Virus record (IMG/VR): IMGVR_UViG_2695420658_000001
Length of the DNA: 5,729 bases
Strand: one strand, 5' to 3'
Source: a virus
Lineage: Duplodnaviria; Heunggongvirae; Uroviricota; Caudoviricetes
The notes under the pieces are model-generated. The model saw only the letters and a program-made list of their open reading frames with translations. It did not search any database and had not been told where the DNA came from. The position numbers and the translations under genes are program-made. Shown one piece after another: positions 1,784 to 5,729 of the stretch. How positions within the stretch are numbered: the first letter of the stretch is position 1; each line of letters starts with the position of its first letter.

Positions 1784-2296
1784 TGCGCCATGAGTTTATT
1801 TTACCTTATCCGCCGACGGTGAATACTTACTGGCGACGTCGTGGCAGCACATATTTTGTATCAAAAGTTGGTGAGCGTTATCGCCGTGATGTGACGCTAA
1901 TTGTTCGCCAGCAGCGGCTGAAATTAAACCTGTCCGGAAGGCTGGCGATAAAGATTATTGCAGAGCCACCGGATAAGCGCCGTCGTGACNNNNNNNNNNN
2001 NNNNNNNNNNNNNNNNNNNNNNNNNNNNNNNNNNNNNNNNNNNNNNNNNNNNNNNNNNNNNNNNNNNNNNNNNNNNNGGAAGACTGGCGATAAAGATTAT
2101 TGCAGAGCCACCGGATAAGCGCCGTCGTGACCTGGACAATATCCTGAAAGCACCACTGGATGCGCTGACGCATGCCGGACTACTCATAGACGACGAGCAG
2201 TTTGATGAAATCAATATTGTGCGCGGTCAGCTCGTTCCTGGTGGGCGACTGGGCGTGAAGATTTATGAAATCACAGGTGATAACGATGGCGCGTGA
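1783..2296 (+). CDS. rusA: RusA Holliday-junction resolvase, interrupted by an N-run and duplicated flank
   Basis: N-terminal part '[21 protein letters not shown]...[10 protein letters not shown]' and C-terminal part '[23 protein letters not shown]...[18 protein letters not shown]' match the RusA pattern, including the DxRRRDLDN catalytic block. AGGAGG lies at 1767-1772. As given, the two halves are in different frames; removing the 88 N plus one 54-nt duplicate copy (142 nt) restores a single 120-aa ORF. Confidence 0.85.
1936..1989. repeat. 54-nt left copy of the duplication flanking N-run 1
   Basis: ggaaggctggcgataaagattattgcagagccaccggataagcgccgtcgtgac matches 2078-2131 with one mismatch (g1941 vs a2083). 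Confidence 0.9.
1990..2077. other. N-run (88 nt), unresolved sequence or scaffold gap
   Basis: Run of n flanked by a near-identical 54-nt duplication inside rusA. Confidence 0.95.
2078..2131. repeat. 54-nt right copy of the duplication flanking N-run 1
   Basis: Matches 1936-1989 at 53 of 54 positions. Confidence 0.9.
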
Positions 2297-2672
2297 TATT
2301 CAGCAGGTTATGGAACGGTGGGGGGCTTGGGCTGCAAACACTCATGAAGATGTATCCTGGGCGTCGATCGCTGCTGGTTTTAAAGGGTTAATTCCGTCGA
2401 AAGTGAAATCACGCCCTCAGTGTTCTGATGATGATGCAATGATAATTTGTGGCTGTATGGCCCGGTTGAACAAGAAAAATCAGGATTTGCACGATTTGCT
2501 GGTGGATTATTACGTAGGTGGAATGACTTTTATGAGTCTGGCACGGAAACATGGGTGTTCGGATACCTGTATTGGCAAGCGCCTGCAGAAAGCGGAAGGG
2601 GTTATTGATGGCATGTTGATGATGCTTGATATCCGGCTGGAGATGGACAGATACGTAGAACGAATTATGTAG
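2286..2672 (+). CDS. quuD: Q-family late-gene antiterminator homolog (QuuD-like)
   Basis: 128-aa ORF '[61 protein letters not shown]...' closely matches my recollection of E. coli DLP12 QuuD. Its start overlaps the rusA 3' end (ATG 2286, rusA stop 2294-2296). A promoter-terminator cassette follows immediately downstream. Confidence 0.8.
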
Positions 2673-2676
2673 GTGC

Positions 2677-2706
2677 TTGACCAGACACATTGTCCGGGGC
2701 TATATT
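2677..2706 (+). promoter_or_regulatory. candidate late promoter (PR'-like): TTGACC, 18-nt spacer, TATATT
   Basis: -35 TTGACC at 2677-2682 and -10 TATATT at 2701-2706, beginning 5 nt after the quuD-like stop. A terminator lies about 75 nt downstream, as in lambdoid PR'/tR' arrangements. Confidence 0.4.
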
Positions 2707-2713
2707 CCTCACG

Positions 2714-2731
2714 CGCCAGCAAAATCTGGCG
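2714..2731 (+). promoter_or_regulatory. stem-loop in the predicted late leader (CGCCAG-caaaat-CTGGCG)
   Basis: Perfect 6-bp inverted repeat at about +1 to +20 of the predicted transcript, with no T-run after it. Possible pause or qut-associated RNA structure. Confidence 0.3.
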
Positions 2732-2767
2732 TCGGGATTGGAACCCCGGATAGAGACCGCGACAGAC

Positions 2768-2791
2768 ACACGCCGCGAGCGTGTTTTTTAT
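2768..2791 (+). terminator. rho-independent terminator (tR'-like)
   Basis: Stem ACACGC (2768-2773), loop cgcga, stem GCGTGT (2779-2784), then TTTTTATT. It is + strand specific; the reverse-strand hairpin has no T-tail. Confidence 0.55.
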
Positions 2792-2965: not shown

Positions 2966-3026
2966 NNNNNNNNNNNNNNNNNNNNNNNNNNNNNNNNNNN
3001 NNNNNNNNNNNNNNNNNNNNNNNNNN
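2966..3026. other. N-run (61 nt), unresolved sequence or scaffold gap
   Basis: Run of n directly after repeat copy A. Confidence 0.95.
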
Positions 3027-3048
3027 ACTGCGCCAGCGGAGAACTACG

Positions 3049-3648
3049 ATGGCGCATATACAACTGATCAAACAAACCTCTTCCGGATTACTTCTCCCGG
3101 CGACGCCGGAGAGTTGCGATTTTCTGCATCAAATCAAAACAGGTGAGTGGATACACGCAGACTTTAAGCGTGTGCGTAACTACGCATTCCACAAGCGTTT
3201 TTTCAAACTCCTGCAACTGGGTTTCGATTACTGGACTCCGGTCGGTGGGGCGATCACGCCTCGCGAACGAAAACTGGTGTCCGGTTTCGTTGATTACCTG
3301 TGTGAATCAGTAGGCCGGGAACATACGCCAGCTCTGAGCGAAGCCGCAGAGCAATATCTGAATACAGTTGCGACACGCAGAACCCGGGATACGGCATTGC
3401 TAAAGTCGTTTGAGGCTTTTCGCGAGTGGGTAACCATTCAGGCTGGATTTTACACCGAACATTTTTATCCGGACGGTAGCCGCGGGCGTCGGGCAAAATC
3501 CATCGCTTTTGCGAATATGGACGAAACCGAGTTTCAGCAGGTTTATAAATCTGTTCTGAATGTGCTGTGGAACTGGATTCTGTTCCGTAAATTTTCCTCT
3601 CCGGAACAAGTCGAAAATGTGGCCGCGCAGCTGCTGGAGTTTGCGTAA
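3049..3648 (+). CDS. hypothetical lambdoid nin-region protein (resembles the DUF1367 family)
   Basis: 199-aa ORF with GGAG at 3038-3041 seven nt upstream of ATG 3049. Its stop TAA 3646-3648 overlaps the next gene's ATG (TAATG). The frame is open into the N-run, so the start could lie further upstream. Family assignment is from memory only. Confidence 0.65.
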   Translation: MAHIQLIKQTSSGLLLPATPESCDFLHQIKTGEWIHADFKRVRNYAFHKRFFKLLQLGFDYWTPVGGAITPRERKLVSGFVDYLCESVGREHTPALSEAAEQYLNTVATRRTRDTALLKSFEAFREWVTIQAGFYTEHFYPDGSRGRRAKSIAFANMDETEFQQVYKSVLNVLWNWILFRKFSSPEQVENVAAQLLEFA

Positions 3649-3938
3649 TGGTGGATTTACGTAAAGCGGCGCGGGGGCAGATGTGCACCGTCAGAATTCC
3701 TGGCTACTGCAATCACGATCCGGAAACGTCTGTGCTGGCGCATTACCGACTGGCGGGAACGTGCGGAACAGCGATAAAGCCACACGATATGCAGGCAGCG
3801 ATTGCCTGTAGCTCGTGCCACGATTTAATCGACGGGCGGGTAAAAACCAGCGATTACACCAAAGAAGAATTACGCCTGATGCATGCAGAAGGTGTTTTTC
3901 GCACACAAGAAATCTGGAGAAAGGAGGGATATTTATGA
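3648..3938 (+). CDS. ybcO: YbcO-like protein (DUF1364, putative nuclease of lambdoid nin regions)
   Basis: 96-aa ORF 'MVDLRKAARGQMCTVRIPGYCNHDPETSVLAHYRLAGTCGTAIKPHD...IACSSCHDLIDGR' matches the E. coli DLP12 YbcO pattern (MADLRKAARG...VRIPG.CN..PETSVLAH.RL.G.CG...KP.D...IACS.CHD.ID.R). Translationally coupled on both sides. Confidence 0.8.
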   Translation: MVDLRKAARGQMCTVRIPGYCNHDPETSVLAHYRLAGTCGTAIKPHDMQAAIACSSCHDLIDGRVKTSDYTKEELRLMHAEGVFRTQEIWRKEGYL

Positions 3939-4489
3939 TTTACCCAACGAATACAGGAAAAAGCGGAGAACACCTTCGTCTCACCACGCTGGAAAGTGTC
4001 TGGATTCAGGGAAAACTACGTATGTGGGGGCGCTGGTCGTATATTGGTGGCGGTAAGACGGGGAATATGTTTAACCTGATGTTGACCTCTAAAAAGCTGA
4101 CAAAAACGGCAATTAACGAGGCGCTCCGGAGGATGAAAAAAGCAGGTCTGAACAAGTCTGAACTTGAGGCTTTTTTGCGGGATATGATTAACGGTAAGCA
4201 AAAGAGCTGGCTGGCGCATTGTACTGATGCAGAGGCGTTATGTATTGATCGGGTCATAAGTGAGGTGCTGGCAGAGCATCCAGGATTGATTAGCGTCCTT
4301 CGGCAACGGTATGAGGGGCGGGGGATGACCAAACGCAAAATGGCTGAACTGCTGAATGATGCACACCCGAAATGGAGTTTAAGAACCTGTGAAAGACGCA
4401 TTGAGCATTGGCTAAAGGTGGCAGAATTTATTTTGTACAAACCAATGGTTATGGCTTTTGGTATAGAGAAAAAAGTTATTGCTTTTTGA
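3935..4489 (+). CDS. putative late-gene regulator, candidate second Q-like antiterminator (184 aa); function uncertain
   Basis: Strong RBS AAGGAGGG at 3921-3928 and ATGA overlap with the ybcO-like stop. N-terminal 'LRMWGRWSYIGGG' echoes the 'ERWGAWAAN' motif of the QuuD-like protein. C-terminal 'VLRQRYEGRGMTKRKMAELLNDAHPKWSLRTCERRIEHWLK' resembles a sigma region-4 / HTH segment. It is followed by the same 196-bp promoter cassette as quuD. Confidence 0.55.
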   Translation: MIYPTNTGKSGEHLRLTTLESVWIQGKLRMWGRWSYIGGGKTGNMFNLMLTSKKLTKTAINEALRRMKKAGLNKSELEAFLRDMINGKQKSWLAHCTDAEALCIDRVISEVLAEHPGLISVLRQRYEGRGMTKRKMAELLNDAHPKWSLRTCERRIEHWLKVAEFILYKPMVMAFGIEKKVIAF

Positions 4490-4534
4490 CGTAAAAACTG
4501 CTTCAATTCTTGTACGCTTCGCAAAGCTGTACCN

Positions 4535-4730
4535 ACGCCGCGAGCGTGTTTTTTATTGTCGTATGCACGCGCACATCTGAATTATGGTGGGGCGCATGGG
4601 GGAGCTGAAAAGCTCGCCGGTCGGTTTCCCGGTAGTTCCAACCCTGTGCGTCTCACCACCCGATGATTGGAACCTGACGGTGTTGACAGTTTCAGGTTTG
4701 CAGTTTACATTTCCCCGCGGTGCTCAAAAC
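4535..4730. repeat. 196-bp direct repeat, copy B (identical to 2770-2965)
   Basis: Perfect identity. A single ambiguous base n at 4534 sits immediately upstream, inside what would be the terminator stem. Confidence 0.95.
4683..4711 (+). promoter_or_regulatory. sigma70-type promoter TTGACA, 17-nt spacer, TACATT (inside repeat copy B); candidate late promoter
   Basis: -35 TTGACA at 4683-4688 and -10 TACATT at 4706-4711. A terminator-like hairpin with T7 tail begins about 30 nt downstream of the predicted start site. Confidence 0.45.
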
Positions 4731-4746
4731 ACCTCGAAAGCGGTAT

Positions 4747-4776
4747 CCACACCCGATAGCCATGTGGTTTTTTTGT
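4747..4776 (+). terminator. candidate rho-independent terminator (weak stem, strong T-tract)
   Basis: CCACA (4747-4751) pairs with TGTGG (4763-4767) across an 11-nt loop, followed by seven T (4768-4774). The stem is short, so confidence is moderate to low. Confidence 0.4.
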
Positions 4777-4917
4777 GTCCAGAATTCTTGGTTTATGACC
4801 GGGTGTGCGGCTAATACAATACCAGCAATGGAAATACGCCCGCCGACTTTCGACGGTTTTGAGCGCCCGGTCACCCTCTCAAAAGGGGTAAATCAAAATA
4901 TTCGAAAGGACATGTCT

Positions 4918-5481
4918 ATGAATCGCACGTCTATTGAAAAACTCCCGTCACTTACGCATAACCATCTTCCTGTCATGACAACAGAGCTGCTGGCTGATTT
5001 GTACGGAACAGAGCGCCAGCGTTTGACAAACAATTTCAATCGAAACAAAGAACGGTTTATAGAAGGTAAACATTTTTTCCTGATAGAAGGTGATGCGTTA
5101 CGAGAGTTGAAGAACGAAAACTCTTTAAGAGTTTCTGTGAAAATTGCCCGTAACGTTCGCTCCCTCATCCTCTGGACAGAACGTGGCGCAGCCCGTCACG
5201 CCAAAATGCTCGAAACCGATCAGGCGTGGGAAGTGTTCGAAAAACTGGAAGACTGTTATTTCAACCAGAAACAGCCACCAGCGGCACAAAACACATCTAT
5301 CGAAAATGATGGATGCGCATTACTGAGCCACTTCGATAAACACGGTCAGGTTGAGTTCACGGAAAAGGTACCCGCCGATGCGATGGTATGTACTCTGGAA
5401 CGGTTTAAATTTTATCTGGAGCAACACGGGTGGATCGTTGCCCGTAAAGAGCAACTGGTGGAGCGGTTGATGCGGTTTTAA
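4918..5481 (+). CDS. ORF6N-domain (KilA-N / Bro-N-like DNA-binding fold) protein, antirepressor-like; C-terminal about 75 aa unassigned
   Basis: 187-aa ORF. 'PVMTTELLADLYGTERQRLTNNFNRNKERFIEGKHFFLIEGDALRELK...LWTERGAARHAKMLETDQAWEV' fits the ORF6N pattern (VM..DLA.LYG.E...L...RN.ERFPEDF.F.L...E...LK...WTE.G.A...L..D.A). AAGGA at 4906-4910 precedes ATG 4918; ATG 4912 is the alternative start. Confidence 0.75.
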   Translation: MNRTSIEKLPSLTHNHLPVMTTELLADLYGTERQRLTNNFNRNKERFIEGKHFFLIEGDALRELKNENSLRVSVKIARNVRSLILWTERGAARHAKMLETDQAWEVFEKLEDCYFNQKQPPAAQNTSIENDGCALLSHFDKHGQVEFTEKVPADAMVCTLERFKFYLEQHGWIVARKEQLVERLMRF

Positions 5482-5512
5482 AAATTTTTTCCGAAAACTT
5501 TACGATCGTAAA

Positions 5513-5549
5513 NNNNNNNNNNNNNNNNNNNNNNNNNNNNNNNNNNNNN
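5513..5549. other. N-run (37 nt), unresolved sequence or scaffold gap
   Basis: Run of n. The 24 nt directly after it (5550-5573) exactly repeat 5357-5380 from inside the ORF6N gene. Confidence 0.95.
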
Positions 5550-5562
5550 TCACGGAAAAGGT

Positions 5563-5588
5563 ACCCGCCGATGAGCGGGTTTTTTTAT
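5563..5588 (+). terminator. rho-independent terminator
   Basis: Stem ACCCGC (5563-5568), loop cgatga, stem GCGGGT (5575-5580), then TTTTTTAT. Confidence 0.6.
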
Positions 5589-5636
5589 ACCTGAAAAACG
5601 GCACAGGACGTTAAACGTGCTGGTGGTCAGATGAGT

Positions 5637-5665
5637 TTGCAGATGTGATGACATATGGTTATTAT
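5637..5665 (+). promoter_or_regulatory. candidate promoter for the tRNA gene (TTGCAG, 17-nt spacer, TATTAT)
   Basis: -35 TTGCAG at 5637-5642 and -10 TATTAT at 5660-5665, placing the start site a few nt before the tRNA 5' end at 5675. Confidence 0.35.
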
Positions 5666-5674
5666 TCTGCCTCC

Positions 5675-5729
5675 GGCCCTTTAGCTCAGTTGGTCAGAGC
5701 GAGCGACTCATAATCGCCAGGTCGCTGGT
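5675..5729 (+). tRNA. ileZ: tRNA-Ile (anticodon CAU, lysidine-type, ileX/ileZ-like), 5' portion; truncated by window end
   Basis: GGCCCTTTAGCTCAGTTGGTCAGAGCGAGCGACTCATAATCGCCAGGTCGCTGGT closely parallels E. coli ileX as I recall it. D-arm AGCTCAGTTGGTCAGAGC; anticodon loop CTCATAA with CAT at 5709-5711. Met versus Ile2 cannot be fully settled from the anticodon alone. Confidence 0.8.

Follow-up and report, generated by a model that had tools for sequence, protein, structure and literature searches.

A predicted IsrK small RNA at the head of an antirepressor-control cassette, directly behind a quuD-like antiterminator gene

The window analysed here, a 5,729-nt stretch of Caudoviricetes DNA (IMG/VR record IMGVR_UViG_2695420658_000001), carries a promoter, hairpins and a terminator at 2677-2790, directly 3' of a quuD-like antiterminator gene, which, judged by sequence, specify a copy of IsrK, a small RNA already known from prophages. 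The unit very probably opens, at the 5' side, a portable cassette for antirepressor control of the P1 immI/Gifsy-1 isrK type. Most likely, the unit at 2677-2791 is not a Q-dependent late-gene leader, the role which the first-pass annotation had proposed for it. Elements of this kind are already known, and the present one departs from the type example in nothing but its pairing specificity and the subfamily of the upstream Q.

The upstream gene (Q1; 2286-2672, plus strand, as are all features described below) encodes a QuuD-like antiterminator Q of 128 aa with a Pfam PF06530 (Phage_antitermQ) match of 176 bits. It is 81% identical to K-12 QuuD and related to the phage 21 Q structures 6P18 and 6JNX (E 3e-7). 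Four nucleotides separate its TAG stop codon (2670-2672) from the promoter PisrK (2677-2706), which consists of the -35 element TTGACC (2677-2682), an 18-nt spacer and the -10 element TATATT (2701-2706) and matches the sigma-70 consensus at 10 of 12 positions, as expected from the earlier call of a TTGACC/TATATT promoter beginning 5 nt past the Q stop. The predicted IsrK-type RNA of 77 nt (2713-2789) is made up of hairpin 1, hairpin 2, a single-stranded spacer and the terminator, and the minimum-free-energy fold of the RNA from G2713 contains three hairpins. Hairpin 1 (2713-2732) is the "leader hairpin" of the first-pass annotation; its CGCCAG/CTGGCG stem at 2714-2731 is perfect over 6 bp, just as described there, or 7 bp long if G2713-U2732 is counted, and it exposes the conserved loop CAAAAU. 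Hairpin 2 (2733-2748) holds the b1 site in its loop. An intrinsic terminator had been claimed at 2768-2791, and a terminator scan locates it at 2768-2790, with a 6-bp ACACGC/GCGTGT stem and 5-nt loop (2768-2784) followed by T6 (2785-2790); this matches the 3' hairpin of the Rfam isrK model. The short terminated RNA of about 78 nt predicted to start near 2713 agrees with the mapped 77-nt IsrK of Gifsy-1, which likewise lies directly past a Q-like gene (PMC4825925).

Consensus matches and folding alone do not rise above chance, as the window holds 4 promoter-like sites where shuffles give 5.5 and 6 terminator-like sites where shuffles give 6.0, and the fold z-score of the predicted RNA is only -1.17. 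The unit is considered real because of homology. Rfam RF01394 (isrK) matches 2713-2789 at full length (model positions 1-77 of 77, 77.5 bits, E 6.4e-16), and RF03163 (c4-a1b1) overlaps this match at 2700-2752 (50.1 bits). A C4-type antisense RNA follows at 2815-2898 (RF01695, 71 bits; a' at 2857-2863, b' at 2870-2876) and is the equivalent of STnc1160/orf45' of Gifsy-1; a second RF01695 copy lies at 4580-4663 (71 bits). The isrK, c4-a1b1 and C4 matches stand in the expected order on one strand, and each exceeds its gathering score (50, 46.7 and 45, respectively). The RF01695 and RF03163 motifs are listed in PMC2864571. Further downstream, an ORF6N antirepressor gene (4912-5481; Pfam PF10543, 74 bits) encodes a protein 49% identical to Gifsy-1 AnrP, and contigs which join 2200-2965 to 4731-5512 at 100% identity place this gene downstream of isrK-C4. 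The RNA at 2713-2789 hence combines a full-length match to the isrK model with the IsrK hairpin layout and a position ahead of a C4-like segment and an antirepressor, and the cassette as a whole has the tandem c4-a1b1/C4 arrangement, the complementary sites and the downstream antirepressor gene of a P1-type c4 module.

For comparison, 121 homologous units were taken from viral contigs via the terminator string; the terminator is invariant among the compared units because it was the search string. The promoter TTGAC-N17-20-TATATT is kept in 107 of the 121, whatever gene lies upstream. Among 32 variants of hairpin 1, four of the seven pairs show compensatory changes on both sides, and 95.4% of cells are paired compared with 23-50% when the partner is slid.

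The window appears to be a gapped draft scaffold interleaving two prophages. N runs occupy 1990-2077, 2966-3026, 4534 and 5513-5549, and the sequences on either side of the gap in rusA overlap by 54 nt, with one mismatch. The segment 2770-2965 (terminator, C4 and b2) has an exact second copy at 4535-4730, a 196-nt direct repeat of 100% identity; the first copy runs to an N run, and the second starts past a single N and is contiguous with the antirepressor gene. The junctions flanking the block 2966-4534 (Q1-isrK-C4-DUF1367 on one side and Q2-45 nt-terminator-C4 on the other) are absent from complete E. coli genomes. Two complete genomes carry the Q2 3' end and the next 45 nt, then the leader and terminator of Q2 itself and then the tRNA region (window 5575-5729), with neither C4 nor ant between Q2 and the tRNA region, and four viral contigs that are 100% identical over 1548 nt join 2200-2965 directly to 4731-5512. 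A prophage with tandem Q genes was considered and rejected in favour of a scaffold artefact, given that these junctions are absent from complete E. coli genomes; the DUF1367-YbcO-Q2 block (2966-4534) most likely comes from another prophage. The N runs, the repeat, the missing junctions and the joined contigs together indicate the natural order rusA, Q1, isrK, C4, ~190 nt, ant, a short unit and tRNA. The unit at 2677-2791 itself lies within contiguous sequence and is conserved in complete genomes at 92-96% identity.

A tRNA scan of the window found no tRNA, and Rfam gives only a truncated one at the window end, where a tRNA gene at 5675-5729 is cut. A promoter-like TTTGCA-18-TATTAT (5636-5665) stands in front of it, and past the window end the identical contigs hold more tRNA-like sequence, an arrangement known from Stx-type late regions.

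The sites through which IsrK would pair with C4 are present. The b1 site GAUUGGAAC (2736-2744) lies in the loop of hairpin 2, and its UUGGAAC (2738-2744) is complementary to the GUUCCAA of C4 (2870-2876). An identical sequence forms the b2 site, GAUUGGAAC at 2900-2908, in the read-through mRNA just past C4, and b1, b' and b2 covary three ways, falling into nine specificity types when distinct units are tabulated (UUGGCGU, UUGGAAC, UUAGGAAC, UUCGAAC, UUUGCAC, UUGAGAC, UUGGUCU, UUGGCAU and UUAGCCU). The a1 site GAGACCG (2753-2759) in the single-stranded spacer pairs with the C4 loop CGGUUUC (2857-2863) over 7 bp including one G-U, and a1, a' and a2 covary across loci in five types. The extent of the Rfam c4-a1b1 match had suggested the loop of hairpin 1 as a1; this loop is complementary to no C4 loop, and covariation puts a1 at 2753-2759. 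RNAduplex separates cognate from non-cognate IsrK-C4 pairs by a modest gap (-40.7 vs -35.7 kcal/mol) because extended complementarity dominates; explicit tabulation of the sites was more informative.

In typical loci, a2 lies directly 5' of the ant Shine-Dalgarno sequence. No a2 site was found in the variant of the window, in which ~190 nt with an sRNA-Xcc1-like element replace a2 and the usual junction with the ant ribosome-binding site, and ant control may therefore differ in detail here. The element, at 4797-4880 between C4 and the antirepressor gene, matches Rfam sRNA-Xcc1 (RF02221) over its full length with 77.4 bits against a threshold of 53 and has a C4-like architecture, with an outer stem around two hairpins. 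The second of these hairpins has the loop CUUUCGA, the complement of UCGAAAG in the Shine-Dalgarno region of ant (~4896-4902), and the element may constitute a second antisense layer. A similarly long spacer between C4 and ant occurs in 8 of the 121 viral-contig units, where ant starts ~350 nt past the IsrK terminator. Inside the repeat and just past b2, at 2918-2946 and 4683-4711, there is also a promoter-like TTGACA-17-TACATT (10/12), at the point where the variant of the window diverges and where typical loci carry a2 and the ant ribosome-binding site.

In Gifsy-1, IsrK is a 77-nt sRNA transcribed from its own promoter directly 3' of the Q-like gene antQ, and deletion of this promoter abolishes the mapped primary transcript (PMC4825925). 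A fraction of the RNAs started there continues past the IsrK terminator into orf45 and anrP, the antirepressor gene, and the orf45 region holds a processed stable RNA, STnc1160 (PMC4825925). Acting in trans on the long transcript, short IsrK permits anrP to be translated, and AnrP raises antQ expression and induces the prophage, forming an IsrK, AnrP, antQ cascade (PMC4825925). By analogy, we infer that the same IsrK-C4-ant logic operates in the prophage of the window. The constitutive-looking sigma-70 promoter at 2677-2706 would start an RNA near G2713, and most transcripts would end at the terminator (2768-2790) to give a 77-nt IsrK in which the hairpin 2 loop (b1) and the spacer (a1) each present a target mimic. 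Read-through would yield the C4-type antisense RNA (2815-2898) and an antirepressor mRNA with b2 and, typically, a2. C4, either free or as a segment of the long transcript, would pair with b2 and a2, masking the ant start and leaving ant untranslated; free IsrK would compete for the same C4 sequences and relieve the block. Ant would then inactivate the prophage repressor and turn on the early operon, including Q. To this proposal, the sequence itself contributes homology, the promoter and terminator, the three-way covariation of the a and b sites, the linkage to ant and the independence from Q.

The closest known system is IsrK of Gifsy-1 (RF01394; Hershko-Shalev et al. 2016, PMC4825925), with which the unit shares a 77-nt RNA, here predicted to start from a promoter-like sequence of its own, directly 3' of a Q-like gene, a three-hairpin layout with an intrinsic terminator that aligns over model positions 1-77, and a processed C4-like RNA (STnc1160/orf45') and an ORF6N antirepressor behind it. 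In Gifsy-1 itself, Rfam finds isrK, C4 and isrJ where they are expected. The two differ in the upstream Q subfamily (a 128-aa PF06530 type here, the 225-aa AntQ in Gifsy-1), in the b site (UUGGAAC here, UUGGCGU in Gifsy-1) and in the a site (GAGACC here, UCACC in Gifsy-1). In addition, the C4-to-ant spacer is ~190 nt longer here, with the sRNA-Xcc1-like element in place of the orf45-anrP overlap.

The immI region of P1 and P7 reportedly encodes the c4 antisense RNA, which acts on a1/b1 and a2/b2 target sites and controls icd-ant. It has the same order of promoter, a1/b1, C4, b2 (with a2 in typical loci) and antirepressor as the cassette described here, its target sites are likewise complementary to C4 loops, and the specificity types covary in the manner of P1 and P7 immunity. 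Unlike in immI, an intrinsic terminator past a1/b1 would release this segment as a separate sRNA, a2 of typical loci directly adjoins the ant Shine-Dalgarno sequence and not one belonging to an icd-like ORF further upstream, and the cassette resides in lambdoid prophages. The CI RNA of P4 with its seqA and seqC has been likened to the Gifsy-1 system (PMC4825925); it too is an antisense RNA processed from a transcript which carries complementary sites on both sides of it, but P4 controls transcription termination of replication genes and not antirepressor translation.

The distribution of the cassette ties it to the antirepressor and not to Q. The module precedes an antirepressor in Gifsy-1, Stx phages, PhiR12 and E. 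coli prophages, and it does so in three contexts: after Q (Gifsy-1 and E. coli prophages), after ninE in the nin region, 5' of ant-roi-ninG-Q (PhiR12_1 and Stx2a_WGPS6), and beside divergent genes (Stx2 phage PA2). The -35 element TTGAC and the block TCCGGGGCTATATTCC are conserved in all aligned contexts regardless of the upstream gene. Among the 121 units, the upstream gene is a Q1-type Q in 16, a DUF1133-type Q in 17, an AntQ-type gene in 14, NinE in 18, a PA2-type gene in 5 and something more diverse (toxins, integrase, NinB-like and more) in 49. Hence, a Q gene from one of three families lies directly upstream in 47 units (~39%), and 73 units (~60%) have no upstream Q. An ORF6N/Ant-like gene, on the other hand, follows in 99 of the ~116 units with enough sequence (~85%). 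It is because the upstream contexts are diverse while ant follows and the promoter is kept that we regard the unit as tied to the antirepressor. The ~39% of units directly behind Q are more than random position would give, an excess which may only reflect the gap between Q and the late promoter being a favoured insertion site. One viral contig (L178, 1433-1631 and ~4400) has an isrK-C4 module ~2.5 kb 5' of a Q1-family gene with that family's own downstream unit, unitQ1, directly behind it, so that the IsrK unit and unitQ1 are seen apart within a single phage.

In lambda, the late cassette has the order PR'-qut-tR' and produces the short 6S RNA. The first-pass annotation applied this scheme to 2677-2791, proposing a PR'-leader-tR' unit behind the QuuD-like Q. 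Spelled out, the unit would be PR' with its qut site and tR', the short transcript would be a 6S-like by-product, and Q would load at a promoter-proximal pause and carry transcription past the 2768-2790 terminator into the late genes. The resemblance to the lambdoid arrangement (lambda 6S; phage 21 Q) is genuine with regard to the position right past Q, the succession of promoter-like sequence and intrinsic terminator and the predicted short abundant RNA: a strong promoter-like sequence starts 5 nt past the Q stop, the terminator at 2768-2790 follows, and 47 of the 121 units have a Q gene directly upstream. Moreover, CAAAAT at +8 to +13 resembles a -10 element (4/6 matches, with A2 and T6 present), and the upstream half of the promoter spacer varies with the upstream context, the spacer being where the Q-binding elements (QBEs) of lambda and phage 21 sit (PMC6606751). 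We nevertheless consider the late-leader reading improbable. The same promoter and RNA stand behind three Q families and also in the 73 units without Q, so that co-inheritance of the 2677-2790 unit with one Q family was not found (121 units; 83 Q1 loci), and what follows is C4 and ant, not lysis genes. The QBE of phage 21 Q consists of two direct 6-bp repeats 8 bp apart, TGAGCA at -21 and -13 (PMC6606751), whereas the 18-nt spacer AGACACATTGTCCGGGGC shows no such repetition when compared with itself at an 8-bp offset (2/10 matches), in what is an indirect comparison as this QBE belongs to another Q. Loci with Q proteins of 96-100% identity also diverge at 3 positions of the PisrK spacer, and the spacer of unitQ1 is unchanged between them. 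Most variants retain the -10-like CAAAAT, which doubles as the loop of the covarying hairpin; the PA2-type variant lacks it and yet keeps the hairpin through compensatory changes. Of the earlier interpretation, the short terminated RNA stands and the Q-dependent late unit is probably wrong. The leader hairpin is an RNA-level element with a covarying stem, which, together with the IsrK/C4 pairing logic, makes it a structural element of the sRNA; a sigma-dependent pause at its -10-like loop is conceivable. In contrast to PR'-qut-tR', the unit lacks Q-family-specific linkage and a direct-repeat QBE, its predicted role is RNA-RNA pairing, and a separate unit at 5499-5586 fits the late role better.

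That separate unit, unitQ1, comprises a promoter-like sequence, a leader and a terminator (5563-5580) and is specific to the Q1 family. It lies partly under the N run 5513-5549, and the sequence under this gap was recovered from identical viral contigs. In this phage it reads TTTACGATCGTAAAAA-N6-TATCCT, GTTAAGAGTGGTTAC and the terminator ACCCGCCGATGAGCGGG-T7, with the -10 TATCCT falling inside the N run, and it contains the 10-bp palindrome TACGATCGTA. The same unit is found at ~5890-5975 of contig L007 and directly after Q in L178. Of 83 loci encoding Q1 homologues, 42 have IsrK downstream of Q. Those without IsrK mostly encode a 145-aa Q, ~82% identical, with a different unit directly behind it (TTTACG-16-TATCAT, the conserved GATAAGAGTGGTTAC and the terminator ACCCGCCGATGCGCGGG-T7), and the same unit appears after the antirepressor in Q1-isrK loci. 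Overall, unitQ1 lies downstream of 80 of the 83 Q1-family genes, at the Q 3' end in 29, after isrK-C4-ant in 41 and after other small inserts in the rest. Retention of this other unit by the Q1 family, together with the missing phage 21-type QBE in the PisrK spacer, speaks against assigning PR'-qut-tR' to 2677-2791. Across Q variants of 82-100% identity, unitQ1 keeps its -35 element and upstream spacer (TTTACGATCGTAAAAA) as well as the early transcribed region; its promoter is weak by consensus (8/12 in this phage).

The pattern is not restricted to Q1. When the gene upstream of isrK is of the Q1 type, unitQ1 follows ant in 15/16 units; a DUF1133-type gene goes with its own unitQ2 after ant in 14/14 and an AntQ-type gene with an IsrJ-like unit in 13/14, compared with a cognate unit after ant in 0/64 when NinE, a PA2-type or another gene is upstream. 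Where the cassette is missing, the DUF1133-type Q has its leader and terminator directly behind it; in genomes with the cassette, both are found again past ant. Since a Q protein depends on a binding element between -35 and -10 that is particular to its family (PMC6606751; bioRxiv 10.1101/651190), such family-specific units are likelier candidates for PR'-qut-tR'. From linkage alone, unitQ1 at 5499-5586 is the likelier PR'-qut-tR' of this Q, and on that reading the isrK-C4-ant cassette would be an insertion between Q and its late promoter.

The second Q-like gene of the window, Q2 (3935-4489), has a DUF1133 match and a weak PF06530 match. It has a cognate downstream unit, TTGC(A/T)T-17-TTCAAT with a leader and one or two terminators (L009, 3823-3930; L005, past ant). 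Shigella flexneri CP182556 and E. coli CP178302 carry this unit immediately behind Q, and cassette-bearing prophages carry it after ant. In Gifsy-1, the mapped IsrJ sRNA (Rfam RF01393; 3373-3447 of L001) sits after anrP, the position equivalent to that of a Q-cognate unit, and 13 of 14 units with an AntQ-type gene have it too. IsrJ may be the short PR'-tR' transcript of AntQ, a suggestion which neither PMC4825925 nor PMC7380047 states. The promoter-like sequence at 5636-5665 was also considered as PR' and rejected, as it abuts the tRNA gene with no terminator between and is common to Q1-type and Q2-type prophages. In K-12 DLP12, the sequence downstream of quuD is unrelated, being AT-rich and followed by the nmpC moron. 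The antirepressor ORF (5357-5387) and the terminator region of unitQ1 (5550-5580) share ACCCGCCGATG, and the contig past the 5513-5549 gap opens with 24 nt identical to ant-internal sequence, which is probably a k-mer overlap artefact at a contig end.

A combination of both roles, in which the unit is IsrK and at the same time a secondary Q-responsive site, seems to us similarly improbable. The IsrK promoter would then double as a sigma-70 pause and Q-loading site via CAAAAT, and the resident Q would suppress the IsrK terminator, raising read-through into C4-ant in a burst and closing a positive feedback loop; we give this specific mechanism as little credence. The cassette is often just behind Q, the CAAAAT loop is conserved, and in Gifsy-1, IsrK, AnrP and AntQ form one circuit in which some IsrK transcripts read through (PMC4825925). 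However, one conserved sequence would need to serve three Q families, and PMC4825925 does not describe AntQ acting on the IsrK terminator. Were it true, Q loading at PisrK would feed late-stage Q activity back onto repressor inactivation and would explain why ~40% of cassettes lie exactly at a Q stop codon.

A mere coincidence, in which the terminator closes the Q operon, the promoter-like match is accidental and no RNA starts there, as the chance-level site counts and fold z-score might suggest, is hardly credible in the face of the full-length covariance-model match (E 6e-16), the promoter kept in 107/121 units and a Gifsy-1 homologue which is a mapped primary transcript abolished by promoter deletion.

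The interpretation of the unit as IsrK at the head of an antirepressor cassette shows how a promoter, hairpin, terminator and short RNA may be called correctly at the sequence level and still have the wrong textbook model attached. It also illustrates that draft scaffolds of multi-prophage strains can interleave two prophages, as in this window. The isrK-C4-ant cassette is portable and occurs in many pairing-specificity types, with ~40% of its copies between Q and what is apparently the late unit of that Q. Each of three Q subfamilies has a distinct, conserved short promoter-leader-terminator unit, and these units are candidate uncharacterised qut sites; among them, unitQ1 is a candidate for the true PR'-qut-tR' of QuuD-type Q proteins.
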